DNA of 64,000 nt from the IMG/VR virus record IMGVR_UViG_3300029705_006997. One strand, 5' to 3'. The notes under the pieces are model-generated. The model had not been told where the DNA came from and ran no database searches. It saw nothing but the letters and a program-made list of their open reading frames with translations. The translations under genes were made by a program, and so were the position numbers. Positions 1 through 60,338 of this stretch are shown piece after piece. The DNA comes from an uncultured virus (IMG/VR IMGVR_UViG_3300029705_006997) (Duplodnaviria; Heunggongvirae; Uroviricota; Caudoviricetes). Every line of letters starts with the position of its first letter. Within the stretch, counting starts at the first letter, position 1.

Positions 1-495
1 AAGACAAGCGTTCTTTGGTCAGGTATGGATATGGAATTTGAAAATATTACGGATGTTGATGAACTTACGGAATATTTCAAGGAAGCAACAAGCTCTGTAT
101 GGCAAGATTCAGAAGAGTATCAGAACGACCCTGATGACGAAAAGGCAATAGGTCGCGGAAACTCGAAAATCTGGGAACAGAGGAGACTTGGTCCATATTA
201 TGACGAAAGCGGCAATGTTTATTATCGTTATGCTTGGTATCTTGTACCGAGAGTATTGTCCGATGAAAATCTCAGTGAAACAGACCTGAAATGGTATGAT
301 GACATGCGTAATGACGGTGCCGAAAAGGGCTTTGGAGACATTGAGGAAGATTTGGATAAATACAAAGAAAGTCATGAAGTTGACGAGCATAATACCAACA
401 ATACACCATCTGAGGCAACAGGTGAAGATATAGACGGTTATAAGCGTAAGCTTGCCGAAAATGAACGAATTGCTGACTGGATAAGAGTTGACTGA
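1..495 (+). CDS. Hypothetical acidic protein, probably truncated by the window edge
   Basis: The frame of ORF 25..495 is open back to base 1. Confidence 0.6.
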   Translation, partial: KTSVLWSGMDMEFENITDVDELTEYFKEATSSVWQDSEEYQNDPDDEKAIGRGNSKIWEQRRLGPYYDESGNVYYRYAWYLVPRVLSDENLSETDLKWYDDMRNDGAEKGFGDIEEDLDKYKESHEVDEHNTNNTPSEATGEDIDGYKRKLAENERIADWIRVD

Positions 496-1132
496 ATGCT
501 GGGACCCTGACTGTACGGAATGTGAAGGTAAAGGCGGTCACGGCGATTTCAATACTCTTGCTCAGGGTGATATTATCATTAAAGATGATAAGGTTTATAT
601 CTGGCTTGGAACAGATGCTGTCGAAGCAATGTTCCCGCTTGAAAAAGACCCCGTAAGCGAATCGGGTGATTCGTCAACATCATCGGATGATTATGTGCCG
701 TTTGATACATCCAAGCTTTGTATGGCAGGCGGAGATGAAGCTCAGAAGCTCAAATCTGTTGATACAACAGGTTTTGAATGGAGCAAGCCTTGCGAAGCTT
801 ATGTCGACCATGAAACTCCGTGTCCTGAACACGGTGTTCTGGAAGAACTGCCTACAACTCCGGAGCCTCACGACCCTGACGCTTGTATGCCATATAATCC
901 TGATGGAAAATGGACAGTGTACAGATGCATTGTACCTAATTATACTGATACTTATCGTTCTGCAGGTATTCTTTATGACCCGACAGACGAAGATGATTGG
1001 GAGATTTGGTACAAATATCGTTACAAGGGTATGGAGCCGACATCAGATACACGTCAGTATCTTGAAGAGATTCGTAAGGAACTCGGTCTTGATATTGATA
1101 CTGATTATCCGAGAGACCAAGTAAACAGATAA
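488..1132 (+). CDS. Hypothetical Cys/acidic-rich protein (possibly a frameshifted continuation of the upstream ORF)
   Basis: 214-aa ORF with weak TTG start overlapping the upstream stop; followed by a hairpin. Confidence 0.55.
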   Translation: MTECWDPDCTECEGKGGHGDFNTLAQGDIIIKDDKVYIWLGTDAVEAMFPLEKDPVSESGDSSTSSDDYVPFDTSKLCMAGGDEAQKLKSVDTTGFEWSKPCEAYVDHETPCPEHGVLEELPTTPEPHDPDACMPYNPDGKWTVYRCIVPNYTDTYRSAGILYDPTDEDDWEIWYKYRYKGMEPTSDTRQYLEEIRKELGLDIDTDYPRDQVNR

Positions 1133-1139
1133 TTGATGG

Positions 1140-1175
1140 CAACCACAACGGTTATATAACCGTTGTGGTTGTTTC
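1140..1175 (+). terminator. Palindromic hairpin, likely terminator
   Basis: CAACCACAACGGTTATATAACCGTTGTGGTTG followed by TTTCT. Confidence 0.65.
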
Positions 1176-1187
1176 TGTTAAAAACAC

Positions 1188-1249
1188 CTCATTTATGAGC
1201 GATTATAACAGAAAAAGCTATTGACAAGGTGGCACGGGTATGTTATAAT
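1188..1249 (+). promoter_or_regulatory. sigmaA-type promoter with upstream CTCATTTATGAG box
   Basis: TTGACA 1221-1226, 17-nt spacer, TATAAT 1244-1249; box 1188-1199. Confidence 0.8.
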
Positions 1250-11270: not shown

Positions 11271-11315
11271 ATATTATAAGATAACATAATATAATATTGA
11301 GAAAGGGGCGTTTTT

Positions 11316-14510: not shown

Positions 14511-15197
14511 ATGCAATTAGACAAAGTTATACCTAACGTCGACTTTCCATCAATAAATAATTTTGATATAATTGATAAAGATGAAGAACTGGTGTCTTTA
14601 TCAGAAGCGGGCTTTTTATGTGAATCTCAGTATTATGAGCAAGGCATAGCAGGCTCTTTGAAAGATTGCTATGCAAGACGCAGCGTTGTTGATAAGCTTC
14701 AGGTTGCACAAAGTCTGCTTCCAAAGGGTCTTAAGTTCAAGATATATGATGCTTACAGACCAATCAGTGTTCAGCAAACACTTTGGGATTTTTATCGGAA
14801 TAAAATTCAAAACGATAATCCAAGTCTGTCTGAAACAGAGCTGGACAAGAAAACAAGCTTTTTTGTCAGCAAGCCAAGTTATGATGAAATGCATCCATCA
14901 TTGCATAATACAGGCGGAGCTGTCGATTTGACGTTGGTTACGGACAATGGTTATGCTCTTAATATGGGTACGCTTTTTGATGATTTCACAGAAAGAGCGT
15001 GGACCAATCATTTTGAACAATATACGAAGTGTGAAGAAGTTAAAATAAACCGCAGGGTTTTATATAACGCAATGCTTGAAGCAGGCTTTACCAATTTGCC
15101 ATCAGAATGGTGGCATTATGATTACGGAACAAAGTTCTGGGGTTATTTCACAAAGCAGGATGCTTTGTACAAAGGTATATTGAATAGTCCTTTTTAG
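14511..15197 (+). CDS. D-Ala-D-Ala dipeptidase (peptidase M15D, VanX/DdpX-like)
   Basis: YDAYRP, SLHNTGGAVDLTL, MGT.FD, EWWHY motifs. Confidence 0.9.
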   Translation: MQLDKVIPNVDFPSINNFDIIDKDEELVSLSEAGFLCESQYYEQGIAGSLKDCYARRSVVDKLQVAQSLLPKGLKFKIYDAYRPISVQQTLWDFYRNKIQNDNPSLSETELDKKTSFFVSKPSYDEMHPSLHNTGGAVDLTLVTDNGYALNMGTLFDDFTERAWTNHFEQYTKCEEVKINRRVLYNAMLEAGFTNLPSEWWHYDYGTKFWGYFTKQDALYKGILNSPF

Positions 15198-25700: not shown

Positions 25701-26876
25701 CTTTATTCTCTTGGTATTTCAAGCAACATATCTTGCCGTAAGCGAGATAATAAAAACGATGAATACGATGTTCATGTTAAAATCGGAAATCAGGATAAAG
25801 AAAAGTTCTTTTATGTCGAGCGAAAGAGAGCAATTGCTCGCAAAGCTGCGAAATCCGATGCCCATAAAACGAGAGTCAAGAAATTCGGAGAAGTTATCGG
25901 TATTCGTGATATTCGTAAGCTTGATTATAAGGAAGAAATGACCTGTATCATGGTTGATGACCCTGAGCATCTGTATCAAGCGGGGAATTTTGTAGTGACT
26001 CATAATACTGAGCTCACAAAACAGCTTGCTGAAATTCTTTTCGCAGACCCAAAACGTCTTATTCGTTTTGATATGACTGAATACTCTCAGCCTCAGTCTA
26101 TTGAACGTTTCAGAACTGAAGTTACTACGAAAGTCTGGGAGCGTCCTTACTCCGTATTGCTTTTCGATGAAATCGAAAAAGCCTGCGGTGATGTAACAAG
26201 AATTTTACTTCAGGTTCTTGACGATGGTCGTCTTATCGACCAGAATAACCGAGAAGTAAGCTTTTTGAATACATATATTGTACTCACAACCAATGCCGCA
26301 AGTGAAATTTATAAGACTGTCGGTAACTACGTGAATGATGACAATATGTCTGAAGCTGACCAGATTAAAGCACTTGGTAAGTATATGAAAGTTATCAGAC
26401 GTGCGATTGTTGAAGGTACAGGTAACAATAAATTCCCGCCTGAACTTCTCGGTCGTATTGACGCGATTTGCCCGTTCATGCCTTTGAGTGAAGATACACA
26501 GCGTAAAATTCTTGAAAAAAGAATGGAAAAGCTGCGTATTGAGGTTGAACAGAAGCATAATCTTAAATTATCCTATGCAACTGACGATATTCTCAGATAT
26601 ATCCTGCGTGATAAACTGGATACAGAATCTGATTCAGGTGGTGCTCGTATTGTAGCAACCAAGTTTGAAGAAGAGGTTGTAATCGAGGTTGCGAGAATAA
26701 TCAATTTTATCAACAGTGACAGCGATACTACGCTGACTCATGATAATATCATAGGCATAAGGATTGTTGTTGAAGGTGATATGGCTGTTGACAACAAGAA
26801 TTTGCTTGAAGGTAATGCAAGTATCGTTGCATATCCTGTAAACAAGGATAACAAAATTGTTCAAATCATTAAATGA
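22800..26876 (+). CDS. ClpA/ClpB-like double AAA+ ATPase with two inteins (about 622 aa after splicing)
   Basis: LIGRE, GDAGSGK|TALV, LFIDEFH, GSTGVGK|TELTK, RFDMTEY, LLFDEIEKA, LLQVLDDGRL, PELLGRID. Confidence 0.9.
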   Translation: MTGSQIYKALAACPEFQTQFPMLHCYGTPVKRMTRQLIGREKQLRQLKAGLLRPELCNVLLLGDAGSGKSCANDTLIPVADERGYVLISELKVGDYVFDENGKPTQVLGVFPQGKKHAYKVSFPDGAGIVCNDEHLWNVRKRKAHYSNRPFETMTLREMMDFGITRDLSSGKRRSFYIPMNDALQREERDLPIHPYVIGALIGDGSLSANSQLTVSSNDKFVVDKIASLIGAIDVVKSISNYDWYFVRKSKIGTSTHIQQSELASKCSFDKVFFTKSIERRIPREYMLGSIEQRYALLRGLMDTDGTVSGNGRCNCSYSTNNKLLAEDVQELVRSLGMRASIAVSHRNDDVHKNDEYEVHISVPDENKFKLFSLPKHLEKLNANLRDNKHFNKHYDDLAVESVEDLGYETEMTCIYVDSPSHLFQAGKEHIVTHNTALVQGAMAADTARVYLEIDISKMIADLRDNNEMAVKIKALFDESAKFVKESGTEIVLFIDEFHLICMLSDAAVEALKPQLADSGTRGVRTIVATTFTEFREYISANQPLVQRLQRIEILPPAKEAIVSILKSFAKIYGVADEIHGTYLYEQIIELSNRYIPANSQPRKSILLLDLMVGWYRAEPGTKMDINLLYDVLKYSEGIELNVSVDAVGIKKRLDSKVFAQYLATSAVASRLQITSADLNNKTKPMGSFLFTGSTGVGKALTNSTRIPVYTADNSVCYKLNGDLKVGDYVFNREGKPVEITGVYPQGELDVYEVVLTDGRKLLCNGEHIWTYKSRFGNGSKAWKNATTEELRQKYQNKYYNEGRRAHTVKFVIPMNQAVQWPEIDYEVHPYVVGSMIGNGCLTLSGLTFSSNDRSVVKRIATLIGARSYRKDNANYNWYFYNKPYDKNKRNCRIQTADVFKSIPELINKHSGKRYIPDIYKKGSIKQRWELIRGLFDTDGTISRTNNRFNVSYSTMSERLAYDIQEVLYSLGISSNISCRKRDNKNDEYDVHVKIGNQDKEKFFYVERKRAIARKAAKSDAHKTRVKKFGEVIGIRDIRKLDYKEEMTCIMVDDPEHLYQAGNFVVTHNTELTKQLAEILFADPKRLIRFDMTEYSQPQSIERFRTEVTTKVWERPYSVLLFDEIEKACGDVTRILLQVLDDGRLIDQNNREVSFLNTYIVLTTNAASEIYKTVGNYVNDDNMSEADQIKALGKYMKVIRRAIVEGTGNNKFPPELLGRIDAICPFMPLSEDTQRKILEKRMEKLRIEVEQKHNLKLSYATDDILRYILRDKLDTESDSGGARIVATKFEEEVVIEVARIINFINSDSDTTLTHDNIIGIRIVVEGDMAVDNKNLLEGNASIVAYPVNKDNKIVQIIK
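23007..24104 (+). mobile_element. Intein 1 with LAGLIDADG endonuclease (366 aa)
   Basis: Begins SCANDT, ends VTHN before Thr; IGALIGDG and LRGLMDTDG motifs. Confidence 0.9.
24897..26006 (+). mobile_element. Intein 2 with LAGLIDADG endonuclease (370 aa), Ala1
   Basis: Begins ALTNST, ends VTHN before Thr; VGSMIGNG and IRGLFDTDG motifs. Confidence 0.9.
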
Positions 26877-26894
26877 CAAAGGAGTGAATGACAG

Positions 26895-29288
26895 ATGAAG
26901 TTTCCTAACATCGGTGGTAAAAAGGCTGATAATGCTGAGAACTCATCTTCCGCACCTGCTGCGGCAAACAAAAAGGCAACTAAATCTGAAATGGGCGAAT
27001 ATCTTTCCGAAACAGTCGGAAGCGCAATGACAGATGTTATCGTAAAGAATGAAAACTTTATCGTCAGGGAAAACGGTAAGACCTATTACATAGGTATGCT
27101 GCTTGACGTAACAAAAATCGGCGGTATTAACAAAAAGGCTGTCAATAACAAAGATATAGGCGGAGTTATCGAAGCTATCAAGAGCAATCATATTGATGCT
27201 TATATTACTGATGAATTCAACAACAATAATGAATTGCTGTTTATTCCGTCAGCGGCTACATTTGACAGACTTATGGACTACGGCGTGTTCAGACGTGTTG
27301 ACGGCTATGAATTCATTAAGCTTGATAAAAAGCTCAATGTAGTCGAAAGAACAGGTGTGTTCGGAACATATGACGAGTTCAGGGATATCGGAAACGGAAG
27401 TAAGAAGATTACTGAGTTTGTAAAGCCTAAGGATGTCATTGTTCAGGGTTCACCGGAAGACCCGACAGCAAATCATAATCCTCTTGCAACTTTTGCAAAT
27501 AAAATTAAGGATGTTACATCGGATGTGGTCGAAAAGGCTGCACCTGTTGTTACTAAGGCTGTCAATACGGTGACAGAAAAAATATCTGAGACATCAGGTA
27601 TCAAGGATATGGTTCCGCCAAAGGCAGAAAAGCCTAAAGAAGAACCAAAACAGGAAGCCCCTGTTGTTGAAAATACTCAGCCTGTTCAGCAGGCACCTGT
27701 TCAGCAGCAGACAGTACAGCCCACAGCTCCTGTGTCCAATATTCCGGCTGAAGATGAACAGGAAGTCACATATACTGAAACCAGTATTATGAGTACAATA
27801 GAGCGTGTATTCCATGCTGATAATCTTGATTTACCTGTATCAACGGAACCTTTTGACCAGCTGTTCACACTTAATAACCATTTGATTAAATTCGATATCG
27901 ATTCTCGTGATACATATGTAAACGAAAGACTCAATGTCATGGCTGCCGATGCAAATCGTGATTTGCTGAAGCTTCGTGCTGATAATCTGAAAAAACTCAG
28001 AGAAAAGTACATCATGGTTATGTCAGTTCGTATTCTTGATATTCAGCGTGAATTCGATATTAACGATAAGTCGACACCGTATGGTCAAAGAAAGTGGAAC
28101 ATTGATGAAACACGAGAAAAAAGAGTTGAATCTGTTGCCACAGAAATTGAAGCGAAGCGTAAAGAAATCGAAGATGAATACAACAAGTCATTGGAAGAGT
28201 ATTGTGAAGCCGAAGCCAAAAAGGCGAGAAGCGAGTATAACAATAAATATCAGAGAACCTGCAATGACCGTATGAATCAGGTTGAAAGCCTTGTAAAGGC
28301 TGAAATCGATAACGACTATAATCGTGCTATCAGTGATTTGTATACATCAAGACGCAGTGAAGCACTTACTCTTCTTGATATGAACGTAACTATGACTCTT
28401 AAGGAACTTGCTGAAGAATACAAGGCTATGTTTGAAGAAGAAAATGCTTTGTATATCGAACGTGCCGAACAGATGCGTGAATATACGAAAGAGCTGCATG
28501 CCGAAGACGCTAAGCGTCTGGCTATCGAAGAAGAGCGTAATCGTATTTCCAATGAGGTTAATGATGCAAGAGCTGAAGCGGCTGCTAAAATTGAGCTTAT
28601 CCGAAAGGAATTCGAGACAGCTCAGGCTGCTCTTGAAGCACGTTCCGAAGCAACTATTGCTCAGGCTGAAAATCAGAATACACTTATCAAGGAACAGATG
28701 GATGCAAGAACATCTGCTCTTGAACAGGATAAAGAAAGATTGCAGAAGCAGCTTGATGAAGCCATCAAAAGAGCAGATGAAGCTCAGGAAAATGTCAGAG
28801 CGGATTACGAGCATAGGCTCACACAGGCTCAGGATGACAGAGATTCTTGGAAACAGACGCTCGAAAGCTACAAGGAGCAGCATAAGCATAATAACAGATT
28901 GGCAACGATTCTTGTTATTGCAATCACAATTGCGGCAATTGCAGGCGGTTTTGTAGCCGGCGGTGTTTACTGGAACAGAATTGTAGCGGGTGAGCTTACA
29001 AACAATTCAAGTGATGTTGAAATCAATGTGATTGACCCTAATACGGTAAATACTACAACAGAGCTTGAAAGTGCTGTAACTGACGCATTGACAGACAATG
29101 AAACAGAAAATACTGAGACAAGCAATGAAAAGACAGCGGAAACATCAGTTCCCGAAGAGTCTGAGATTACATCTTCTGTAACTACAGCTGTGACTACAGT
29201 TCCTGAAGATGATGAAGATACATCGTCAGTTACAACACCTGTTACAACTCGTTCCTCAGGAACCTTTACCACAACAGGTCGTAATTGA
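26895..29288 (+). CDS. Long coiled-coil protein with C-terminal TM helix and Thr-rich tail
   Basis: 797-aa ORF with GGAG RBS. Confidence 0.85.
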   Translation: MKFPNIGGKKADNAENSSSAPAAANKKATKSEMGEYLSETVGSAMTDVIVKNENFIVRENGKTYYIGMLLDVTKIGGINKKAVNNKDIGGVIEAIKSNHIDAYITDEFNNNNELLFIPSAATFDRLMDYGVFRRVDGYEFIKLDKKLNVVERTGVFGTYDEFRDIGNGSKKITEFVKPKDVIVQGSPEDPTANHNPLATFANKIKDVTSDVVEKAAPVVTKAVNTVTEKISETSGIKDMVPPKAEKPKEEPKQEAPVVENTQPVQQAPVQQQTVQPTAPVSNIPAEDEQEVTYTETSIMSTIERVFHADNLDLPVSTEPFDQLFTLNNHLIKFDIDSRDTYVNERLNVMAADANRDLLKLRADNLKKLREKYIMVMSVRILDIQREFDINDKSTPYGQRKWNIDETREKRVESVATEIEAKRKEIEDEYNKSLEEYCEAEAKKARSEYNNKYQRTCNDRMNQVESLVKAEIDNDYNRAISDLYTSRRSEALTLLDMNVTMTLKELAEEYKAMFEEENALYIERAEQMREYTKELHAEDAKRLAIEEERNRISNEVNDARAEAAAKIELIRKEFETAQAALEARSEATIAQAENQNTLIKEQMDARTSALEQDKERLQKQLDEAIKRADEAQENVRADYEHRLTQAQDDRDSWKQTLESYKEQHKHNNRLATILVIAITIAAIAGGFVAGGVYWNRIVAGELTNNSSDVEINVIDPNTVNTTTELESAVTDALTDNETENTETSNEKTAETSVPEESEITSSVTTAVTTVPEDDEDTSSVTTPVTTRSSGTFTTTGRN

Positions 29289-29332: not shown

Positions 29333-29358
29333 TAAATTCGTAAAGGAGTGATGTATTG

Positions 29359-40079: not shown

Positions 40080-40975
40080 AGCTTCTTTACAGACCCGACG
40101 ATTTCGACGCTTACATCAGGTACGCCATCACAGAACGTCGATTTGGCAGGTATGTCATTCCCAAGACGTCTCGGTGTCAGATTCCATAATGACTACATTA
40201 AAATGTATCATCTTGCAGGTTTGCAGGTAAAATGGCAGGCATTTGAAGACGAATTGTATGAAAAGCCTCTGGGTAAGGACTTTGAACACGAAGACCTGAT
40301 TACCCGTGAGGGTTGGGCGAAGTATTATTTCAAAGGTATTTTCCCCAACGACGTTACTTATCTGCGTATGCAGATTAAGAATCCAAGCACAGGTATGCTT
40401 ATCAAGGATTTCTATTTTAAGTTTGAAAAGTCTTATCAGACATCACTTGATGGTAGATTCTACGTTAAGGACCCTGTTCTCGGAACCAAAATAGTCAAGA
40501 ACGGTATCTTGACAGAACTTAAAGGTGTACGTCGTAAATCAACAGGCGAAAAGATGTTTATTCCTCGTAAGACAACATTTAAGCGTGATACTGTTGACTT
40601 TATGCAGGCAAAGCCTGAAAAGAAGCGTACAAATGCAAAGGCAATCATCAGAACAATGTGTCGTTATGCAGAGAAGCCTAAAATGGTTTTCTTGGTAACA
40701 CCGCCACATTTGATGAACTATGCAAAATTGATTCTTATCCTCATTAAACAGCTTGTGGATTTGAATTTCGACCAGTCATATATGACTAAGAGCAATCAGA
40801 AGCCGCTCTATAAAACAAGATTTATGCTTGATGAGTTGGGTAACTTACAGTCTGAAGGACATGGTATCTCAGGCTTCGAGACAATGCTCTCAATCGGGTT
40901 AGGCCAAGAGCAGCAATTTACTTTGATACTCCAGACGCTCCAACAATTACGAGACGTGTATGGAGAAAGCGTAGA
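40080..40975 (+). CDS. VirD4/TraG-like coupling protein, exon 2
   Basis: FTDP.ISTLTS, Walker B FMLDELGNL, ILQTLQQLRDVYG. Confidence 0.85.
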
Positions 40976-42592
40976 GTGCGACTTGTTCTTTTATAACTGA
41001 ATTTATTTCAGGAAATAAAGCAGTAATATATTCTTTCAATTTTTTATTATAATGAGGAAGGCGGTGAATAGTTCAAACGATATGGTATTAAGCACTGGTG
41101 ATAAATTTTTCGATTTAACTGTTGTCACATTATCAAATGTAGTCACTATAGGACATAAGCACACTATGAATAAATATCTATGTGAATGCGTATGCGGTAA
41201 TCATATTGAAGTAAGCCAAGGCGAACTTGTCGGTAAACACGTGAGAAGTTGCGGTTGTCGACATAAGCCTAAAAAACAATCCTTGAAGTATGATTTAACG
41301 GATTGTTATTTTGGTAAATTGCATGTGATTGACCAAGCGGAGACATTTTGGTCAGATTCAGGGAAATCTCGAATGATTCGATGGAATTGCGAATGTGAAT
41401 GCGGTAATAAAATCACAGTAAATTCACGAGCATTACGAACCGGAGCAACACAATCATGCGGTTGTTTACAAAAACAACGCGTTTCAGAAGCTTTAACAGA
41501 TGATTTAACAGGTAAGCGTTTTGGTATGCTTCGCGTTATTGAACGAGCTGGGTCATATCGTAAAACAAATAAGTCAGGCGGAGTAGCAGCATTATGGCGA
41601 TGTGAATGCGATTGTGGCAATGAAACAATCACATTTGGTTGGTCGCTTAAATGTGGTGATAATGTTTCTTGTGGTTGTGCAAAAAAATCACAAGCGGAAC
41701 GATATGTAGAAGACATATTGATTCAAAACGGGTATGTAAAAGATTCCACATATTTTATGGAAAAAACATTTCCCGATTTAATCAGTGTTGACGGCGGTTA
41801 TTTACGATTCGATTTCGCTGTGATAAAAAACAATAGCTACATTTTTATCGAGTGTCAAGGCGAGCAACATTATAAATCAGTTGAATGGTTTGGTGGAGAT
41901 GAGGCATTTAATCGAAGACAAGCCAATGACATTTTGAAGAAAAATTGGGTATTATCACATAATTATCGTTTGATTGAAATCCCGTATACCATTCATTTGT
42001 ATGATGAATTTTTAAATATTTTATTGAAAGAACATATTATTGAACTGGCAAATTGAATATTGGAATGATAAAGTAACGTTTTGAAACAATATCACTAATC
42101 ACCAACATGCGATGTTATTCGTATGGAGCTTGGTAATGTCGGCGTCAAATACGTCGGGTGTCTATAAAATACGTATGGTGAGAATGTATTGAATACTGAC
42201 GAACTTGTGAATGAAAACGTTGATTATTTGCAGATGAGTAAAAATCTACGTATGAAAATCTGCGCTATACGAAAAAATCAATGTGATTTTGGCGGGTATA
42301 GATGTGAATATTGACGTAAAGCAAGCACCTAAACGTATATGTAAAGATAGATTTGTCGGAACAAGGAAAGATATCAATCGTTCAGATTACGGTCGAAGAA
42401 CAATAAGCCGTTTAGTTGATATTGAAAAGTAGTGTTCGGAGCGATGATGACTCTTGTAATGAGAGCAGGAGTAATGGACACAAGTCGAAATTGATTTTTC
42501 GATGGAACGCCGTGTGCGGTGAAAGTCGCACGCACGGTGTGGGTGAGGGGAAAATTCGGAAACAATGAAACAGTAGAATTACCTATTCACAT
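40976..42592 (+). mobile_element. Group II intron 2 (class-B-like, no RT, endonuclease ORF in domain I)
   Basis: 5' GTGCG; EBS1 TCTACG 42245-42250 complements exon end CGTAGA; DV from 42505; 3' end CCTATTCACAT; splice restores GESVD-KIVQGN. Confidence 0.9.
41052..42056 (+). CDS. Intron-encoded putative homing endonuclease (three CxCxCG...SCGC repeats plus PD-(D/E)XK/Vsr-like domain)
   Basis: DLTGKRFG.L.V repeats; LRFDF...IECQGEQHY...LIEIPY. Confidence 0.75.
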   Translation: MRKAVNSSNDMVLSTGDKFFDLTVVTLSNVVTIGHKHTMNKYLCECVCGNHIEVSQGELVGKHVRSCGCRHKPKKQSLKYDLTDCYFGKLHVIDQAETFWSDSGKSRMIRWNCECECGNKITVNSRALRTGATQSCGCLQKQRVSEALTDDLTGKRFGMLRVIERAGSYRKTNKSGGVAALWRCECDCGNETITFGWSLKCGDNVSCGCAKKSQAERYVEDILIQNGYVKDSTYFMEKTFPDLISVDGGYLRFDFAVIKNNSYIFIECQGEQHYKSVEWFGGDEAFNRRQANDILKKNWVLSHNYRLIEIPYTIHLYDEFLNILLKEHIIELAN

Positions 42593-43811
42593 TAAGATTG
42601 TTCAAGGTAACACATCAAATATCGTGTTCCTTAAATCAACAGATGATGCGATGCTTGATACATTGCAGAAAATGTCGGGTACGACACATAAGTCGTTTAC
42701 TGATTCTAAGACGATTACCCGTGATATGCAGAAGCTTATGATGCAGAATGAAGGTAAGGCGTCTTACACAATGACAACGAAAGAAGTGCCTGTTATTTCT
42801 TATAACGATATGGCATTTATTTCGGAGCGTAACAGTATTATCTTCCGTGCAGGCGATAGCCCTGTATGGAACAGAAATGAAACAATTCTGCCGATGTCTT
42901 GGCGTTTGTTTAAGAATACTATTACACAGCCGGGTAAGGAATATTCGCTCCAGACTATCCCTACTCTCAGTTCTGCTCTGGATTTTGATATCAGACAGAA
43001 CCAGCCTGATTTTGTCAAGATGCTTGACAAGAGAATGGCACAGGCAAGTAAGGCGGCAGAAGCTATGTCTATGTTCAAAACGGCATATGATTATACAGAC
43101 GCTGAGCTTGCGAAGCTTGACATTGACGCATATTCCGATGAAATTATGAGTCTTATCAGTGGTATTCTCAATGATAGCCTTGGAAAAGGAACAGCAATAG
43201 CTGACGCTGATGACGAATGTGAGAGCGATGATGTAATAAATATCGATGATTGGGACGACGATATGCTTGAGCCTGATTATATTGATGATATTGACGATAT
43301 CAGTTCTTATGGAATGATTGATTCGGATGACATTGAGGATAATGATGACGTACAACAGGAAGCTGCGAGACGTCAGGCACAGCGTGATGAAAGAGACCGC
43401 AGGATTTATGCAGGCGGTTATATTTCCAAAGCTATGCTTCTTAATCCTGATGGTACAGTCAGGTCACACTCGTTTGATAAAGATTTTGCAGAAATCTTTT
43501 CAAACAATTCAGGTATTATTTTCCGAGACACCGTATATTTCAATGAAAACAACGGAGATTTGTACGGTAAGAACGGTCAGCCATTTATTACAAAAGCCGA
43601 CAATGCAGCTATGATTGCTAAAATGAATGAAGCCGCTCAGGATGATGATACCAAGGTATATTCAGAAGAAGACATTGCCGAACGTAATTTGAGTGCGTTT
43701 AATACTTATATAGTACATGACGCATTTTATCAGTTCTTAGCAAGTCTTGACAGTTGGAATTTTGCAGACAGCGTGTTTGAACGTGAAATGAGAAGACGTA
43801 TGGAAGCATAA
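42593..43811 (+). CDS. VirD4/TraG-like coupling protein, exon 3
   Basis: IVQGNTSNIVFLKSTD..L..L.K.SG, typical TraG/D C-terminal region; acidic tail. Confidence 0.85.
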
Positions 43812-45232: not shown

Positions 45233-45355
45233 TGAAATTGAGTCACACTTTTCGTATAGTAAAAGTGTGACTTGTTTTTCAAAAAGCCGCTTTTTTGCGG
45301 CTTTTTTCAGTTTGAAATGAATAATTAACAATAATTCAATAAATGCTGTTTTTAT

Positions 45356-45406
45356 CTCAAATACGAGGTGATTTTGATTGACAAATTGCTAAAAATATGA
45401 TATAAT
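45356..45406 (+). promoter_or_regulatory. sigmaA-type promoter with CTCAAATACGAG box
   Basis: TTGACA 45378-45383, 17 nt, TATAAT 45401-45406. Confidence 0.8.
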
Positions 45407-45557: not shown

Positions 45558-48500
45558 ATGAGTGTTATGGCGAAGAATAGCCGATTGAGCCATGATGAGA
45601 GGCAAAGACTCATCAAAATCACAGGTCTGGATGAATTGAGGGAATTTATTCCTGATGATGATTTTACAGACGCATTGATTGAGCATGCTGCTGCGGGGTT
45701 GAGCAAAGAACAGCTTGATTCTGAGGATGAGTATTTGTCACCTGCAAGAGAAGGTATGATTAATAACAGCCGAGCTGTTATGAAATATCTTCGTGATAAT
45801 GGGCATAGTTTTTCAGTTTTGCCTGACAGCAGGGATGGTCAGCTGAAGGTTAAGCTTGAGACCTCGAATATTGAGGTCAGAGTGATGGATACTGAGGATA
45901 AGGCTCAGTATGTGGGTCGTGTATACAATGACGGTATTACTTATGCTTTTTCCAAGGGTGCTAATTCAGGCGGGAAGAATCAGCAAAGCGATGCCATTGA
46001 TAATATTACACCCGATATGGCTGTTGACTTGGTAAAATACGGTCTTGGTGAAGATGTAAAGAGACGTATGTACACAGATGCCGAGCATCAGCATTCTGTT
46101 GATGACAAAAAGGTAGGCGCTGCACAGCGTAATCGTTTTGGTGTTGACCCTGAAAACTATCAGCCTAAGTCAAATGGCGGTTTTTCGGCATTGTATGAAA
46201 CAAGAACTCCAAGTAAGATTGGAACAAGGAATGTATCAAATAATATTTATATAAAAGCTACCGATGAACGTAAGTCTACGGTTATGCGATTTGATACAGA
46301 AAATGGTCTTGATGATGCAGAGCTTTATGTTAAAAACAGCATGGAAAATGCGGAAGCTGCATTTACATCAAGGCTGAAGCTTGAGGCTGTTGATGTTCTT
46401 GCTCAGCTGTCTGTTGCAGGTGAATTTGAAGGTGAGCCTGAGTTTTCAGGCGACCCTCGTATCGCTGATATGCAAAAAGCATATTACGACACACGAAAGG
46501 AAATTTATTCAGATAAAGCGGCATATCCGGATGCGGCTGCTATCGATAATGCTAAGTTTGTACAGGATGAGGCTACCAGAAATCAGGTTTCTGAGATGTT
46601 TGGCAATCAGTCTTTAAAGACCATAAATCCTGTAGCCGTAGCGTCATATATGGATGAAAGTAAGGGTTTGCTTACAAACGAGGCTAATTTGCTTTCTGCA
46701 CTCAAGAAAATAAACAATAGTGATAATCCGTCTTATGATATCGAGGGTGATGACTTTGCTTCTAATTATTTCAAGGAGCGTATGGTTGCATATAACCCGA
46801 ATCCTACGACAATCGGCGGTAAAACATATCCTATGGATATCAACCCGAACGGACCCGATGCAGATAAAATGTCACCATTCTGGAAAGAGATGGGTAAGTC
46901 TGTATACGATGGACTTGAAGGTATGGGTGTTCAGGTAAAAAGTATCCATGTTGATGAAAATGGCGTAATTCATTATGAAGGCGGTCGTACACAGGGTACT
47001 TTCTCAGGTAAGAGTAAACCTGAATGGACAGATGTAGTCGGAGATATTGGTCAGGTATTTGAGCCTGAAACCAATGATTATGTTCTTGACGAAAATGGTA
47101 ATCCGACAGGTGAACGTAACCTTACAAAGGGATTTCTGCGTACAAATTTCAATTCGGATGAAAATTATTATATTGCACCCGGTTATACGGCATATGTTGA
47201 GCCGCCATCTGAAGAAAAAGGTACTGAGGGTCAGAGTTATATCGAGCGTACTCGTTTGAGAGGTTATCCTCAGATAATGTCTGATAAGATAAAAGCTACA
47301 ATCAGGCATGACCTTGCATCTGAAGGTGTTGATGGATATTACGATAATACGGCAGGTCTCAATGGTGTGTATCATCATTTGTATGGCGATAAAAAGAGTC
47401 TTGATTTCATAGATAAAATGCGTGAAACAGGAACTCCTGATGACGTAATCGAGGCTATTAACAAGACATCATTGCAGCGTGTCAAGTATGATAAGCATTA
47501 CGGCAGTGATACAAACATACTTGCTGTACAGAAGGCTGAACTCAAAAAAGATAAGGCAATGAGGGGACATGACGTTTATCTTGATGACGTGGGTGCAAAC
47601 ATTGCTCTTATGGACCATAGCTTGTCTAAGAATGTTTTTGACCCATATGCCACAAGTACGGGTACTAATCAGGGTCTTGTAAGATATCTTGTTGACGGTG
47701 CTACTGTCAACCCCGACGGCACTATCAATAAGGGCGACAGTGAGTATTGTAATCTCATAAATCATGATAATTTTAAATATACAAGAGAGGGTAATAACCC
47801 GAACGACCGTGTTTTGATGGCATTTGTAAATGCTATGAATCAGAGTTCAACAGCTATTGGTCGCACAGTCAATCCGGAAGGTGAAGAGATTGAGCCTATT
47901 GGTGTTGGTATGGCTCATATGTCACTTGGCGGTTATACGCAGGATGACGCATTTGTTGTATCAAAGGATTTTGCTGATTCTTGTATGATTCGCGGTGATG
48001 ACGGCAATCTTCGTCCGCTTAAAATCGGCGATAAAATCTGCGACCATTCAGGTAACAAGGGTGTTATTTCATTCATTGCAGACCGAAATGCTGACATGAG
48101 TTATTATGAACCACAGCCTATAGCTGAGGGTATGAGCGTTGAAGAAATCAAGGCTATCGAAAAGAAGAATGATGCTCTTGAACAGCAGAGAAAGATTATC
48201 GAATTGTTTAAAGATAATCCATCTTTGGACATAGTAGGCGCACCTTATACAGCTCCGTCAAGATTTAATGGTGGTACTTCTCGTGAAATGATTGCGAGTC
48301 AGGAAAAGGCAAAGGCTTGCGGAATGCCTACTGACCTTATCGTAGATGGAAAAGTTCATGCAGGCAGCATTGGCTATGCTAAAATTATTGTAACTGATAT
48401 GCCTGTTGATGTCAAAACTCATATTTACGGCAGTGAAAGTCGTGTAAAAGAAGCTATGAATGAAGAAGCTGAAAAGCGGCAGGAAAATGACGGCTTCGAT

Positions 48501-51500
48501 TTGGGTGAGACAAGCGGTGGACGTAAGGCTTCAGGTCAGATGGTCTGGGGACTTGCTGAAATGAATGCAAGCGGTGTTATTCGTGAAATTTACGGTAATA
48601 ACGAAAGTCCGCTTGTAAAAGCTCGTGAAATGATGCTTGCTGTTGGTCTTGATGTTGACGAAACAGGTAAGCTTCACAGAGGCTATAAGCCTCATCAGAT
48701 AGGCGTTGATGATAATAATCAGCCTATTTATGAGGAACGTAATAATATTTCAGTACGCGGCATATATAACGATTGTCGTTCAAGCGAGGTTCCCGGCAGT
48801 GTCGGTGTCAAGGAGATAAAAGACCGCTTTACCGAGTCTTTGGGCGAAGACGGTGGATTTATGAAGATACCATTCCCAATCAAGATGGCAACAGGTGATA
48901 TGACACCTGAAATTCTTGATGAAAACGGTAATGGTACGGGTGAGTATCGACTTCCTGTTCTTTCGGGTAAATTCAGAAGTGGACGAGAAACTGTCGATAA
49001 TCAGCTCATATCCCATGATTATACTGCTCGTTATAACGAGATATTTAATCAGTCGATTGAATATCTTAAAAACGAGGATAAAGCAAATCATGCAAATCCT
49101 GAAGATGGCAATTATCATTATATGTACAGAGGCGAAGACAGAGTTTTGTCTCAGAGTGCATTGCAGGATAAAATGAATAAAGCTCAGGCGAGTGCTCAGA
49201 AAGCATATGATGCTATTGCTGATGACATCAAGGAACGTCAGTTTACAGGTAAGCATAATGTCTGGAAAGATGACGTTATGCGTAAAGAACTCAAGGGAAC
49301 AAGTACAGCCGTTATTTCTCCTGACCCAACGCTTGATTTGAATGAAGTTCGAATGAGTGTTAAGATGGCTATCGGTTTGGGTCTTGTTAAGGAAAACACG
49401 AATATCGAGGAATTTAATAAAAATGCCAAGCTTGATGACAAGATTGTTGTGGGTTGGAGAGACCCATTGCTGTCAGGCGGCGGTGAACGTTCCTTTATTG
49501 TAAATATCGTTGAAGACAGACCGGGTCATCCGGGCTATGACCCCAATAATCCAAATAACGGACTTGTGGGTATTCAGATTAATCCATCTGCGGCAACTTC
49601 ATTTGAAGGTGACTTCGATGGTGACAGTATGGGCTTTTATAAGCCTAAGGGCAAGGCAGCCATTCGTGATTGTAAAGAAAAGCTCAGTCATTGGGCTCAG
49701 ATTCTTAACAATGAAATGGGTAATCCCGGCGAACGTAAGCCTTATTTTCAGGATGGTCTCGACGTTGCGGCAGGTGTATATCGTGACGCTGAAAAAGGCG
49801 GCGATGTAAAGGTTCGCATGGAAGAGGCTGAAAAGCTTATGAATTTGGCTGATATGCTTGGTGATAAGCGTGTTACTCCGGGTTCAGGCAATTACAGAGC
49901 CTTTGAGATGTATAATGCAGCTATGCATGATGCTCACAGAGAAGCTTTCGGTCACGATGTTATTTCTTATGAAAATCCGCAGAAGCACATTGAGTCGTTG
50001 TTCTCAATGACAGAAGAGGGTGCTAAGGGCAGCATTGATAAGCTGAAGAAAGGCTATGCACCTTATTTTGGCTGTGAATTTGAGGTTGATGAAAATAACA
50101 AAATCGTCAGCTTTAAGGATGCTGAGTCATACGCAACTCCTGAAGCAAGACAGGCGTCTATGGCTGCAGGTCATGCAAAGGCTGTTCTGACAGGTGTTGC
50201 AGGTAAATTTTCACAGCATGCTGAGATGCTTGCTTTGAACTATGAGCCTAAGACATCCAAAGAAAAATTCGACTTTGCAGAACGTAAAGATTTGAATAAT
50301 GTCATGACGCTCATTGAGCATGGCTACAAGGTTCAGCCTAAACAGAAGGATATTCAGGTTGATGAAATTATTGACGGTAAACGCACAGGTAATACTGTGA
50401 CCAAGACAATCAATTCATGGGAGCCTGTTGTTGCCCGTGATGAAAAAGGTGAGGTCATCAGAGATAATCAGGGTAAACCCACATATGAAAAAGAGGATTA
50501 TTTCAAGACCGTAACCGATGAAAACGGCAAGACTAAGCGTGTTGTAAATGAGAATGCATTGCCTATCATAAATGCTGTAAGACAGAAATCCAATGAAATG
50601 GGAGCTAACGGTACGTTCTCTGCATCAGCGGCTGCAACTGCTCTTACTCATCCTGTTACACAGTCAGTAATGCAGCTTAAGCATGATACAGGTCCTGAGA
50701 TTCTTCACAAGATTTCGATGATTCAGGAAGTTGCCCCTGCTCTTTGGGCAGGTCATAAAATCGGCAGAGTGCCTGATAATGATACAGGCGAGCTGAAGTG
50801 GCAGGTATTGACTGAACGAAACCCTGAAAACGGTCGTTATGAGCCTCAGCCTGCAAGTCCTGCTGAGTGGAAGAAGATGATGAAAGACTTCTATGAGGCT
50901 AAGGATGGTCTTAATGTAGGCACGCCAAATCCTGAACATGTAAACACAATGGCTGAGATAATGACAGTGAAAGCACCTAACGGTAAGGAATACATCGAAG
51001 GTTTTGATACGAAAACCAAGAAGGTTCTTGAAACTGAAACCGCATTGACTCGTCTTGCTTATGAGGGCAACTTTGATACTCTTATTGAGTATGCTGATAA
51101 AAATGCAAATCTGTTTGAAGGTAAAACAAACAGTTATATTGCACCTAAGGTAGTCAATGATAATATTCGTGAGCTTAACGCGTCGATGGCGGACCCCACA
51201 TATGTACCTCAGTTTAAAGGCTTTGCTGCCAAAGATACAAGGTGTAAAGACGGTGTTGTTGACAGACCGTCAGTAGATGTTGTGGATGAGGTTATGAAGC
51301 AGGGTACTGTACATATCAAGGTTGAAGATGATTATTCAATCGATGATATTACTGTTAATAACAAGCCTGATTATGATGTGACTGAAAACGTACAGCTGAA
51401 TCAAAGCAATAATGCACCTGCAAGAACTTACGCTGATTTGAGTGTTGAAGAACAGCTTGATGTAATGAGAGCTGTTGCTAAGAAAAAGGTGGATGGAACA

Positions 51501-52082
51501 ATCAGCAAAGATAATTGTTCAAGCATTGAGGCTGAAGCTGTTCATCTGTATGCAACGCAGCTTGCACAGTATAAGGAATTGGGCAGTAAGGAACGTGTGA
51601 TGGAATATGAAAGTGAAAATCCAAATGCGTTCAAAGAGCTTCGCACTATAAAGAAGTTTATAGATGTTGAAAGAAACGTTCCGTCTTTGGACAGATTGTC
51701 TGATGAAGAGTACAAAAAGGTAGCAATGTCAGTTGCTTCGGCTTACAGTAATCGTAAAGATACAGCACAGCCTGTTTTTGGAACAGCAAATGAAGAATTG
51801 TTCCATGAAAGACTTAAAAAGCAGGACGCTCAGTTGGCAGGTTTGTCTGCTAATGAAAAACAGCAGGCTATTGCTGAAAATCCTGCGGCATTCAGAGAGC
51901 GTATCGCTTGTCGTAATGCGTTCAATATAATTGAACAGCAGAACGCAAATGTATCCGTAACTCAGACTCCTGTTTCTTCATCGCAGCGTCTTAATGATGC
52001 TATTCACAATCTTATGTCCGAAGAAGATGCAAGTAAGATTAAAGCTGCACAGGCAGAGCAGGATAATATCGCTAAAAAGTAA
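45558..52082 (+). CDS. Single-chain two-barrel (beta/beta'-like) DNA-dependent RNA polymerase
   Basis: beta-like GYTQDDA and LKIGDKICDHSGNKGVIS; beta'-like WRDP.L and FEGDFDGD. Confidence 0.85.
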   Translation: MSVMAKNSRLSHDERQRLIKITGLDELREFIPDDDFTDALIEHAAAGLSKEQLDSEDEYLSPAREGMINNSRAVMKYLRDNGHSFSVLPDSRDGQLKVKLETSNIEVRVMDTEDKAQYVGRVYNDGITYAFSKGANSGGKNQQSDAIDNITPDMAVDLVKYGLGEDVKRRMYTDAEHQHSVDDKKVGAAQRNRFGVDPENYQPKSNGGFSALYETRTPSKIGTRNVSNNIYIKATDERKSTVMRFDTENGLDDAELYVKNSMENAEAAFTSRLKLEAVDVLAQLSVAGEFEGEPEFSGDPRIADMQKAYYDTRKEIYSDKAAYPDAAAIDNAKFVQDEATRNQVSEMFGNQSLKTINPVAVASYMDESKGLLTNEANLLSALKKINNSDNPSYDIEGDDFASNYFKERMVAYNPNPTTIGGKTYPMDINPNGPDADKMSPFWKEMGKSVYDGLEGMGVQVKSIHVDENGVIHYEGGRTQGTFSGKSKPEWTDVVGDIGQVFEPETNDYVLDENGNPTGERNLTKGFLRTNFNSDENYYIAPGYTAYVEPPSEEKGTEGQSYIERTRLRGYPQIMSDKIKATIRHDLASEGVDGYYDNTAGLNGVYHHLYGDKKSLDFIDKMRETGTPDDVIEAINKTSLQRVKYDKHYGSDTNILAVQKAELKKDKAMRGHDVYLDDVGANIALMDHSLSKNVFDPYATSTGTNQGLVRYLVDGATVNPDGTINKGDSEYCNLINHDNFKYTREGNNPNDRVLMAFVNAMNQSSTAIGRTVNPEGEEIEPIGVGMAHMSLGGYTQDDAFVVSKDFADSCMIRGDDGNLRPLKIGDKICDHSGNKGVISFIADRNADMSYYEPQPIAEGMSVEEIKAIEKKNDALEQQRKIIELFKDNPSLDIVGAPYTAPSRFNGGTSREMIASQEKAKACGMPTDLIVDGKVHAGSIGYAKIIVTDMPVDVKTHIYGSESRVKEAMNEEAEKRQENDGFDLGETSGGRKASGQMVWGLAEMNASGVIREIYGNNESPLVKAREMMLAVGLDVDETGKLHRGYKPHQIGVDDNNQPIYEERNNISVRGIYNDCRSSEVPGSVGVKEIKDRFTESLGEDGGFMKIPFPIKMATGDMTPEILDENGNGTGEYRLPVLSGKFRSGRETVDNQLISHDYTARYNEIFNQSIEYLKNEDKANHANPEDGNYHYMYRGEDRVLSQSALQDKMNKAQASAQKAYDAIADDIKERQFTGKHNVWKDDVMRKELKGTSTAVISPDPTLDLNEVRMSVKMAIGLGLVKENTNIEEFNKNAKLDDKIVVGWRDPLLSGGGERSFIVNIVEDRPGHPGYDPNNPNNGLVGIQINPSAATSFEGDFDGDSMGFYKPKGKAAIRDCKEKLSHWAQILNNEMGNPGERKPYFQDGLDVAAGVYRDAEKGGDVKVRMEEAEKLMNLADMLGDKRVTPGSGNYRAFEMYNAAMHDAHREAFGHDVISYENPQKHIESLFSMTEEGAKGSIDKLKKGYAPYFGCEFEVDENNKIVSFKDAESYATPEARQASMAAGHAKAVLTGVAGKFSQHAEMLALNYEPKTSKEKFDFAERKDLNNVMTLIEHGYKVQPKQKDIQVDEIIDGKRTGNTVTKTINSWEPVVARDEKGEVIRDNQGKPTYEKEDYFKTVTDENGKTKRVVNENALPIINAVRQKSNEMGANGTFSASAAATALTHPVTQSVMQLKHDTGPEILHKISMIQEVAPALWAGHKIGRVPDNDTGELKWQVLTERNPENGRYEPQPASPAEWKKMMKDFYEAKDGLNVGTPNPEHVNTMAEIMTVKAPNGKEYIEGFDTKTKKVLETETALTRLAYEGNFDTLIEYADKNANLFEGKTNSYIAPKVVNDNIRELNASMADPTYVPQFKGFAAKDTRCKDGVVDRPSVDVVDEVMKQGTVHIKVEDDYSIDDITVNNKPDYDVTENVQLNQSNNAPARTYADLSVEEQLDVMRAVAKKKVDGTISKDNCSSIEAEAVHLYATQLAQYKELGSKERVMEYESENPNAFKELRTIKKFIDVERNVPSLDRLSDEEYKKVAMSVASAYSNRKDTAQPVFGTANEELFHERLKKQDAQLAGLSANEKQQAIAENPAAFRERIACRNAFNIIEQQNANVSVTQTPVSSSQRLNDAIHNLMSEEDASKIKAAQAEQDNIAKK

Positions 52083-52137
52083 ATGATATACAGCAGGGAA
52101 GATATATGTCTTCTCTGCTGTAACATTGAGGTGTATT

Positions 52138-52434
52138 ATGATTGATTTTTCAAAAGACGCTGTCAAGTCTGTTCAGGCAGGTAAGACGATAAAAACTGAG
52201 GATAGTAAAAAAATTCGTAACAGACCTGAACGACCATTACATATCAATTACGATTTTGCAGACAGGGATGTTCAAAAAGAACAGCCTGATAATGCTATGA
52301 TAGGTCGAAAGGTACAGGAAGAAGAAAAAATTGAGAAACCTGAGCCTGTACAAAAAAAGCAAAAAAGCAGATTCGATAATATAAATGGCGGCAGTTATGA
52401 AAAACGAAAAGATGATATTGAACTCAGTAAATAA
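52138..52434 (+). CDS. Small hydrophilic hypothetical protein
   Basis: GAGGTG RBS before ATG 52138. Confidence 0.65.
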   Translation: MIDFSKDAVKSVQAGKTIKTEDSKKIRNRPERPLHINYDFADRDVQKEQPDNAMIGRKVQEEEKIEKPEPVQKKQKSRFDNINGGSYEKRKDDIELSK

Positions 52435-53381: not shown

Positions 53382-53666
53382 TTAATATTCAGGCGGAGTG
53401 TTATTTTTAAACAATTCGATATGGTTGTGATATGCTTTTATCAGAACATCTTCCATATACTGTCTGGTTTTATGGTCGATAGGATGAATTATATCACGAA
53501 AACCGCTCTCCGTCTTTTTGCTCGGCATACCGACACAAAGGCGGTTTTCGAGCTGAAGGATTTTTATATCGTGAAGAGCGATGCTGTCGTCAAGTGTGAC
53601 TGACATTATAGCTCTTACAATTCCTTCTTTGTAGATTTTTCTGATTTTAATGTCTGTAATTTTCAT
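53382..53666 (-). CDS. spoVG: SpoVG-family nucleic-acid-binding regulator
   Basis: MKITDIKIRK, HDIKI, GMPSKK, FRDIIHPI. Confidence 0.9.
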   Translation of the reverse strand: MKITDIKIRKIYKEGIVRAIMSVTLDDSIALHDIKILQLENRLCVGMPSKKTESGFRDIIHPIDHKTRQYMEDVLIKAYHNHIELFKNNTPPEY

Positions 53667-59168: not shown

Positions 59169-60338
59169 TTAATTCGCTTTGAAGTTGTATATAGGAATGA
59201 TACGTTCAAGGATTTCCACAGTAGGCTCTATACACTCCATGATTTCAGTGTAGTTTTTGTAAGCAAACGGTGCTTCATCAAGAGTGCTTTCATTTACGCA
59301 GGTAGTGTAAATACCTGCTGTTTTCATTGTATCAGCATATTCTTCAACAGAGAAGATTTCCTTAGCTTTTGAGCGTGAGTATAATCTTCCTGCACCGTGA
59401 GGGGCTGAATAGTTCCATTCAGGATTGCCTTTGCCTTTGCATACAAGCATACCATCACGCATATTAAGAGGAATGACCAATATTTCATCTCTTTTCGCAG
59501 AGATGGCGCCCTTGCGGAGAATCATGCTTTCTATATCAATATAGTTGTGAATGGAATTGATATGAGAAACAATTTTGCCGGACATCCGAGTCACAATAGC
59601 GTTGAGCATCGTGAAGCGATTCTGGTCAGCAAATTTCTGCATGATAGCTATATCGTGGAGATAGTCCTGCATATCTTGTCCTGTAAGATAGCACAGGTCA
59701 CGAGATATATTTATCTTATTTTCCTGCAGCCAAAGTTCACGCTTGACAGGCGGGATAGTCTGCAATAATTCTGTCAGTGTTTTGTGATTGTGTTCTTTTG
59801 TACGCTGTTCAGCAAGGTTCTGATAATACTTTGCCACAGCAAGACCTATATTACGGCTGCCGCTGTGTACAGCGATATAGCCATTTTTGTAAGCCTCAAG
59901 AAAATGATTGCCGCCGCCAAGGGTGCCCATGGCACGCTTTGCTCTGTCTTGAACTTCTTTGGTGAGTTTGTCCCAACAAAGGAGTTTGGTAAAGTCAAAA
60001 TAGACCTCATTCTCGTGTACTGCCATACCATGAGGTATGTTCTTTCGAATAACCTCGTCGAGTTCAGGAAGACGATTTTCAAAGTCAATGTCGGTATGGA
60101 CAAGGTCGACTCCACATCCAATGTCTACACCCACGAGATTAGGGCAAATTTTATCGGTAATTGTCATCGTTGTTCCGATAACACAGCCTGCGCCTGCGTG
60201 AGCATCAGGCATGATTCGGATATTGGCGTTTTCTCCGATAGGGGAATTGGCCATTTCGCTGATTTGTGAAATAGCTTCCTGTTCGATGGTCTTGGCATAG
60301 ACAATGACATCACCGTGTTTTGAAGTTAAGGTAAACAT
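59169..60338 (-). CDS. rtcB: RtcB-family RNA ligase
   Basis: MPDAHAG, VGVDIGCG, GTLGGGNHF, HSGSR, HNY, RKGA, SAPHGAGR, DEAP.AYK. Confidence 0.95.
   Translation of the reverse strand: MFTLTSKHGDVIVYAKTIEQEAISQISEMANSPIGENANIRIMPDAHAGAGCVIGTTMTITDKICPNLVGVDIGCGVDLVHTDIDFENRLPELDEVIRKNIPHGMAVHENEVYFDFTKLLCWDKLTKEVQDRAKRAMGTLGGGNHFLEAYKNGYIAVHSGSRNIGLAVAKYYQNLAEQRTKEHNHKTLTELLQTIPPVKRELWLQENKINISRDLCYLTGQDMQDYLHDIAIMQKFADQNRFTMLNAIVTRMSGKIVSHINSIHNYIDIESMILRKGAISAKRDEILVIPLNMRDGMLVCKGKGNPEWNYSAPHGAGRLYSRSKAKEIFSVEEYADTMKTAGIYTTCVNESTLDEAPFAYKNYTEIMECIEPTVEILERIIPIYNFKAN

Follow-up and report, generated by a model that had tools for sequence, protein, structure and literature searches.

The closest described relatives of the enzyme considered here are the NCgl1702-like RNA polymerases (RNAPs) of mobile elements, which we take to be single chains carrying both catalytic barrels and encoded beside a VirD4 gene. 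According to the accessible part of PMC7824862, these enzymes have no SBHM/flap insert in the β barrel. That article contained the only mention of the family found in the open-access literature, and its available text gives no experiment, promoter, export signal or activity; the accessible parts of PMC6211774 and PMC8987985 contain nothing on the family. Another single-chain enzyme, YonO of the Bacillus subtilis phage SPβ, is phage-borne, has a size of about 100 kDa, and shows homology limited to a few residues, with none to the trigger loop (PMC5467207, available text). In this study, a 64,000-nucleotide stretch of DNA recorded as an uncultured virus (IMG/VR IMGVR_UViG_3300029705_006997; hereafter the window) was analyzed, in which a plus-strand gene (45558–52082) encodes a single-chain two-barrel RNAP of 2174 aa. 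This polymerase is a newly found member of the predicted NCgl1702-like family, and what is new is its pairing with a strand-exclusive hairpin motif. We propose, with belief and doubt in about equal parts, that it is an active, α- and σ-independent DNA-dependent RNAP of a Gram-positive MobL-type conjugative element, which is exported and uses these hairpins.

The original prediction had described a fused β/β′-like two-barrel polymerase of the NCgl1702-like kind on a conjugative element, and the motifs, the structural models and the gene context bear this out. The 2174-aa open reading frame (ORF) and every quoted motif were found in place, and the motifs are kept in 115–117 of the 117 homologues. 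The β-type motifs start at 47931 (GYTQDDA, aa 792), at 48027 (GDK, containing K826) and at 48051 (GNKGVIS, 48051–48071, containing K834), and the β′-type motifs at 49458 (RDP, R1301) and 49611 (DFDGD, 49611–49625, aa 1352–1356); since one ORF carries both sets, both barrels reside in a single polypeptide. The homologues were collected with residues 700–1500 as the query, giving 118 proteins of 1283–2775 aa, or 117 after removal of one identical to the query; the search covered proteins of 1195–3805 aa, a range that leaves room for split forms. At overall identities of 25–75%, the β-type residues D797, K826, K834, R902 and R989 are kept in 117/117, R1301, D1352 and D1354 in 116 and D1356 in 115, where the misses are alignment gaps. 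In Pfam, RNA_pol_Rpb2_6 matched above the cut-off (E 7e-7) and RNA_pol_Rpb1_2 below it (E 6.5e-5), and NCBIfam contains no model that matches the protein. From established knowledge of such enzymes, DNA-dependent RNA synthesis by the two-barrel, DFDGD-metal mechanism is very probable.

Structure prediction had been suggested as the check for a pair of double-psi β-barrels (DPBBs), and AlphaFold2 models of aa 640–1790 (pLDDT 88, pTM 0.81) and aa 1–900 (pLDDT 90, pTM 0.87) contain both. The barrel with the DxDxD triad (residues 607–724 of the model) matches DPBB domains at Z 8.5–8.9; the second barrel is given by a DPBB match at aa 765–900, and K826 and K834 map to β K1065 and K1073. One structural alignment covers both barrels against QDE-1 (Z 13.3, rmsd 4.6, 390 residues aligned), and the same holds against the single-chain enzymes P74 gp62 (Z 11.0) and P23-45 gp96 (Z 10.6). 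The β-like half (46872–48602, aa 439 to about 1015) carries barrel B with D797, K826, K834, R902 and R989; aa 439–900 match β 37..1153 (6j9e_C: Z 9.1, rmsd 3.4, 332 aligned), and aa 640–956 match β at Z 14.7. The flap/SBHM insert is missing, as D797 and K826 are separated by 29 residues, compared with 251 in β. The β′-like half (48663–50927, aa 1036–1790) comprises the lid, clamp, switch 2, barrel A with DFDGD and the funnel with GAKGS, and matches β′ 20..1249 (6alg_J: Z 14.6, rmsd 4.3, 453 aligned). A search of solved structures with the single sequence gave nothing below E 0.35, whereas a profile of 49 family members matched solved β′ subunits at E 3.5e-17 over the lid, clamp, switch 2 and barrel, with the funnel as a second stretch; HHalign against Salmonella β′ gave 96% over residues 240–496. 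When 16 family segments were scanned without gaps against β and β′, nine ranked clearly top on the expected motif.

A probable bridge helix (50139–50237, aa 1528–1560) appears as a 33-residue model helix, whose residues K1541, T1545 and G1549 are kept in 113, 111 and 115 of 117 homologues, respectively. The probable trigger helices and loop (50622–50747, aa 1689–1730) correspond to two model helices with the motif TQ..Q.KH, where Q1702 (113/117) and H1709 (110/117) are in register with β′ Q929 and H936, at a sequence rank of only second to third. The spacing from the bridge-helix to the trigger motifs is 34 residues in most homologues and 160 in the window polymerase; a β-rich insertion of about 125 aa (aa 1561–1688, 50238–50621) lies between these helices only in the window copy and in P0002. 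The N-terminal domain (45558–46871, aa 1–438) is confidently modelled and has no assigned fold: the structure search with the whole aa 1–900 model gave no clear match over this part, and an atlas search gave no usable match. Because it was modelled only as part of this larger segment, the result is no evidence for a new fold. Its relatives sit in proteins of at least 1700 aa in 109 of 128 cases, most of the distant ones having about 200 extra residues in front, and the domain is a candidate promoter-recognition module. As modelled, then, the polymerase is a shrunken cellular-type enzyme with more than the two barrels.

The comparison with the described polymerases follows from this anatomy. 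With cellular RNAP, the window enzyme shares collinear homology from the β N-terminus to past the trigger loop, and the cellular subunits are its best structural matches; it differs in being one chain, in lacking the flap, in its extra N-terminal domain and in the absence of σ on five elements, as Sigma70_r2 had no match in 5/5 polymerase-bearing elements. YonO is likewise a single-chain two-barrel DNA-dependent RNAP with an aspartate triad. The original prediction had placed the two together, a grouping that fails because the window enzyme retains much more of the cellular one: it has 2174 aa and extensive β/β′ homology, the family profile reaching β′ at the E value given above from the lid to the barrel and including the funnel. 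With the NCgl1702-like RNAPs, compared here through the family description, it shares the two barrels, the location on a mobile element and the missing SBHM/flap insert, and presumably also the single chain and the VirD4 neighbour. The hairpin motif and an acidic C-terminal tail are additions of the present analysis.

The hairpin motif, a candidate promoter of 35 nt, consists of T-N10-CCG followed by a 7-bp stem of free sequence and, mostly, a GNNA loop. A first hairpin scan of the window and of a related element, G431, found hairpins with GNRA loops on the plus strand in 24 of 25 cases, and the pattern was then refined to CCG-N7-GNNA-N7′. The strict pattern occurs eight times in the window (0.05 in shuffles) and 20 times in G431 (0.7 in shuffles), and all 28 sites are on the plus strand. 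The T lies 11 nt before CCG in 27/27 aligned sites (of the 28) and was not part of the search pattern. Among perfect GNNA hairpins, 25/27 of those with a CCG-like foot are on the plus strand with the T, and the T is found in only 1/8 of those without such a foot. The stem pairing is kept while its sequence varies (88 double changes), but this covariation is partly circular, as the sites were chosen for pairing, so that the weight rests on the unselected T and the strand bias. A covariance model found 31 sites in G431, all on the plus strand and some with other loops. In G001, a genome on which the model had not been trained, 11 matches were obtained, mostly on contigs homologous to the element; of eight match-bearing contigs examined, seven were homologous to element proteins, the T was present in 8/9 strict sites, and the six T-bearing strict sites with a following ORF were all on the template strand of that ORF.

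The plus strand is the coding strand of the transfer genes and the template for most other genes; in G431, coding sequence outside the transfer block amounts to 82 kb on the minus strand versus 32 kb on the plus strand. Most copies of the motif lie upstream of non-transfer genes, on the strand that serves as their template, and many sites are 40–100 nt before a start codon. The eight window sites, all on the plus strand, are at 9291–9345, which is a duplicate of 12389–12443; 11097–11151, upstream of a minus-strand HipA-like gene; 12389–12443; 13311–13365, where the T (13320) precedes the second ATG (13293) of the minus-strand ORF 13000–13329 by 27 nt; 13975–14029, whose T is 19 nt before the minus-strand ATG at 13965; 14097–14151; 34211–34265, within the cargo of an intron described below, with a weaker second site at 34079–34134; and 63112–63166, upstream of a minus-strand gene block ending at 52477. 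Readings of the motif as a terminator, an Frpo sequence, a σA −10 element or a dimer operator were considered and set aside as not fitting.

The motif agrees with open-complex geometry when the T is taken as +1: CCG then occupies −11 to −13, the stem begins at −14, and the hairpin would replace the upstream duplex of the open complex. The virion RNAP of phage N4, a T7-like enzyme, uses template-strand hairpin promoters with a 3-nt loop centred at −11 (PMC4496689, available text). As far as that text goes, it shares with the present motif the template-strand hairpin, the stem bases that are free if paired, the G-A closed loop and a fixed spacer to the start, the T being the putative start here; delivery of the enzyme with the DNA, a feature of N4, is proposed here. 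The differences are that the present enzyme is of the two-barrel type and that the loop has 4 nt and lies about 21 nt from the T. Frpo, as described in the accessible part of PMC11541004, drives expression of plasmid leading regions from transferred DNA: its folded template imitates a −35/−10 duplex that the host enzyme can use. Both systems would rely on template folding for early expression of newly transferred DNA, but the present motif lacks −35/−10 hexamers, and the polymerase is supplied by the element itself.

A host-type promoter is found ahead of the polymerase gene itself. It is a perfect σA-type promoter (TTGACA-17-TATAAT with an extended −10 TG, plus strand, 45378–45406), preceded by a terminator-like hairpin at about 45283–45308, and near-consensus promoters occupy the same spot in the loci L004, L111, L026 and L016. 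The window contains seven perfect TTGACA-N16-18-TATAAT sites, compared with 0.15 in shuffles, including 45378 (polymerase), 22687 (AAA–VirD4 operon) and 1221 (genes from 1309); in G431, near-consensus promoters likewise stand ahead of the transfer operons and the polymerase. An operator-like palindrome with the consensus CTCAWWWATGAG has nine window sites at no more than one mismatch (1188, 13643, 14165, 18971, 22653, 36846, 37340, 45356 and 53800), of which the copy at 45356–45367 accompanies the polymerase promoter; 6/9 are 22–44 bp upstream of a near-consensus promoter. With these consensus σA promoters, expression of the polymerase and of the transfer machinery is probably the work of the host enzyme. 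The claim of host-independent transcription of element genes by the polymerase is therefore narrowed: it probably does not extend to the polymerase gene and the transfer operons, and, judging from sequence, the transfer genes probably do not need the element polymerase. The RNA data, one run with a share of 0.06 and contigs only, carry no weight either way on expression.

The C-terminus of most homologues is a low-complexity tail in which positions −5 to −8 are acidic and positions −4 to −1 are glycine or hydrophobic; this pattern is present in 63/115 homologues versus 17 in shuffles. In the loci, it is found in 60/66 polymerases versus 3/78 VirD4 proteins, 2/53 AAA proteins and 0/51 coiled-coil ORFs, and it recurs in three neighbouring families (52/62, 22/22 and 18/22). 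The match in G431 extends from the polymerase to all six plus-strand ORFs of at least 100 aa that come next, against 26/192 overall. The acidic tail seems to resemble type IV C-terminal signals, and the shared tail may be an export signal. Transferred plasmid primases provide a precedent for protein transfer (PMC5512222, available text). The suggestion that the polymerase acts after transfer into the recipient gains indirect support from the strand-specific motif and from the shared tail. A run of uncharacterized genes behind the polymerase in G431 (L145:9102-15054) and at L004:10871-17677 encodes products with acidic tails, which are candidate exported effectors; in the window, a small downstream ORF on the plus strand (52126–52434) also has the acidic C-terminal tail.

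These observations can be arranged into the following scheme. The host σA enzyme would act first, using the consensus promoters under a shared operator to express the polymerase and the transfer operons. The polymerase would then accompany the DNA through the conjugation channel, directed there by its C-terminal signal, a step that could equally well fail as hold. It would recognize the hairpin on the template strand, at the foot of which CCG stands, and RNA synthesis would begin at the invariant T or beside it, a role for which we see the case as evenly poised. As a result, non-transfer genes would be transcribed, either from the single strand that enters or from hairpins extruded by supercoiling. 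In the best reading, the polymerase transcribes, or primes, element DNA from the hairpins, probably in the recipient; that it transcribes from the motif is a matter on which we are evenly divided. The broader statement, that Gram-positive MobL-type conjugative elements inject their own one-chain cellular-type polymerase, which transcribes the incoming single strand from T-N10-CCG-7-bp hairpins without α, σ or the host enzyme, is offered tentatively and is rather less probable. An injected element polymerase would be the plasmid counterpart of the virion-packaged phage polymerases.

Several observations weigh against this scheme. On the export side, the tail pattern was composed after the tails had been seen, the loci are phylogenetically non-independent, the tail of the window polymerase itself does not match, and MobL relaxases match in only 11/30 cases (two picks being wrong-frame ORFs). 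On the enzyme side, neither the bridge helix (rank 4, z 3.1) nor the trigger segment (rank 2–3, z 4.4) was top in the gapless scan, so that both assignments rest on their order, the model helices and conservation. As for the motif, the next templated ATG is 350 to 7235 nt away for three of the window sites, and some sites adjoin σA promoters. It is also clade-limited: 18 other polymerase-bearing genomes or plasmids gave 0–2 model matches each (150 candidates scored per genome), distant elements have 0–2 strict sites each, a general hairpin scan of them found no clear counterpart, and the covariance model matched none of five loci taken from the 66 of a metagenome profile scan. Conversely, 10/100 family control genomes gave 1–2 matches, the polymerase being absent by the present query in the five checked, although the strongest of these matches adjoins element-like genes. 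In addition, what links the polymerase to the motif is their co-occurrence in three related elements.

The clade limitation and the unmatched tail of the window polymerase are also what one would expect if the enzyme, active in the established host, used other double-stranded promoters and the hairpin motif belonged to a different, clade-specific factor, such as a regulator, a single-stranded-DNA promoter of the host polymerase, a PriA- or HUH-type site or an RNA leader; a cargo of 2174 aa would, moreover, be large for export. We consider this somewhat unlikely, because the fixed T-to-CCG spacing with a free stem fits no −35/−10 promoter, terminator or dimer operator, and column counts on the coding strand reveal no conservation like that of T(−7). 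RNA tetraloops follow the GNRA rule, which the loops GCTA, GTCA and GCCA violate. If the same enzyme and sites instead yielded a short primer from which the complement of the transferred strand is synthesized, replacing a primase, the number of the sites, their restriction to one strand and the distance of some from gene starts would be accommodated; no Toprim_2 primase match was found in 5/5 elements, in a search that covered Toprim_2 only among the primase types, and Frpo is reported to serve both transcription and priming (work cited in PMC11541004). Many sites, however, lie 40–100 nt before a start codon in the templating orientation, and the clamp, the lid and the probable trigger loop suggest processive transcription, so that this explanation seems to us unlikely. 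Finally, the tight VirD4 linkage, and the fact that the literature searched held no activity data for the family, would suit a protein that serves the transfer apparatus as a scaffold and is catalytically dead or does not transcribe, but the metal- and NTP-binding residues are all conserved despite an overall identity as low as 25% (25–75%), and we regard such a scaffold as very improbable. Transcription of element DNA from the hairpins by an exported polymerase is the reading we prefer.

The surroundings of the gene are those of a conjugative element, here one of gut bacteria. On the plus strand, a MobL relaxase is encoded at 15888–18002 (E 1.9e-50), followed by two conserved neighbours (22800–29288), a two-domain, Clp-like AAA ATPase interrupted by two LAGLIDADG inteins (22800–26876) and a coiled-coil membrane protein, and by a VirD4-like coupling protein (29356–43811). 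We speculate that cargo for export, the polymerase for example, could be unfolded by the Clp-like ATPase. VirD4 is upstream of the polymerase in 67/72 loci, three of the five exceptions being short contigs, and MobL is present in 33/34 polymerase-bearing genomes or plasmids. Among 14 control genomes, only Corynebacterium glutamicum had a MobL match, which is an indirect link to NCgl1702; from this match, the CGP3 of C. glutamicum, termed a prophage, may be such a conjugative element. CGP3 has an actin-like protein (PMC5539076, available text), as has G431. The polymerase was found on 13 of 72,556 plasmids, each time annotated as a hypothetical protein, the carriers including Lactococcus, Staphylococcus, Gordonia, Rhodococcus and Streptomyces. 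It is sporadic, occurring in 1/399 sampled Clostridia genomes, that one being the centre of the sample itself; the nearest named relative is an Oscillospiraceae metagenome-assembled genome (L004, 55%). In the metagenome scan, the single protein gave no match and the profile gave the 66 loci mentioned above, mostly distant. A phage origin was rejected, since 50,697 phage records contained no full-length match (only five weak β′-type ones by tblastn) and the 25 strong IMG/VR matches are mostly behind VirD4; these 25 contigs (L111–L135), listed as viral, resemble conjugative elements.

The VirD4-like gene has three exons (29356–32256, 40080–40975 and 42593–43811) and is split by two group II introns. 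Intron 1 (32257–40079, 7823 nt) contains six cargo ORFs, with no reverse transcriptase seen among them; the cargo includes a C39-peptidase ABC transporter and a PcfJ-like protein, and has its own promoters and hairpin sites. Intron 2 (40976–42592, 1617 nt) contains an ORF (41052–42056) with Cys-rich repeats, which by eye is endonuclease-like and not a reverse transcriptase and which lies before the domain I Rfam match, outside domain IV. Akin ORFs are present at the same VirD4 site in L004, L129 and L132, and many actinomycete relatives have an intein-like insert there. The exon phases are compatible, the pieces abut in relatives, and an allele without intron 2 is present in public contigs; splicing of both introns with the exons in frame is predicted from the phases and the relatives. 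An absence of VirB4 could not be upheld: Pfam AAA_10 was negative in 5/5 elements, yet NCBIfam NF045975 was weakly VirB4-like in three. In G431 (L143:5092-8051) and at L001:8671-11666, a 290–310-aa N-terminal piece of a VirB4-like ATPase is followed by a 680–710-aa ORF with no family match, an arrangement that looks like an atypical or split VirB4. Accessory genes (9443–12175, 12433–12981, 14511–15197, 59169–60338 and 53382–53666) include a HipA-like kinase, a SocA/Panacea antitoxin with a PemK-like partner, a dUTPase, a D-Ala-D-Ala dipeptidase, an RtcB ligase and SpoVG. At the window edge (25–1132), two successive ORFs match one 680-aa G431 protein, as a split or frameshifted gene. The apparent terminal repeats of G431 are a 48-nt stretch that we take to be a sequencing adapter, so the completeness of G431 was not trusted.

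In the literature searched, this polymerase family has so far been a bioinformatic prediction without a template, a promoter or a role. The defined 35-nt candidate promoter makes its function directly testable. If the proposal is true, early genes of conjugative elements in Bacillota and Actinomycetota can be expressed without the host enzyme, by a minimal cellular-type RNAP in which one new domain takes the place of α, σ and the flap; such an enzyme would bear on how polymerases evolved and could serve as a tool for orthogonal transcription.

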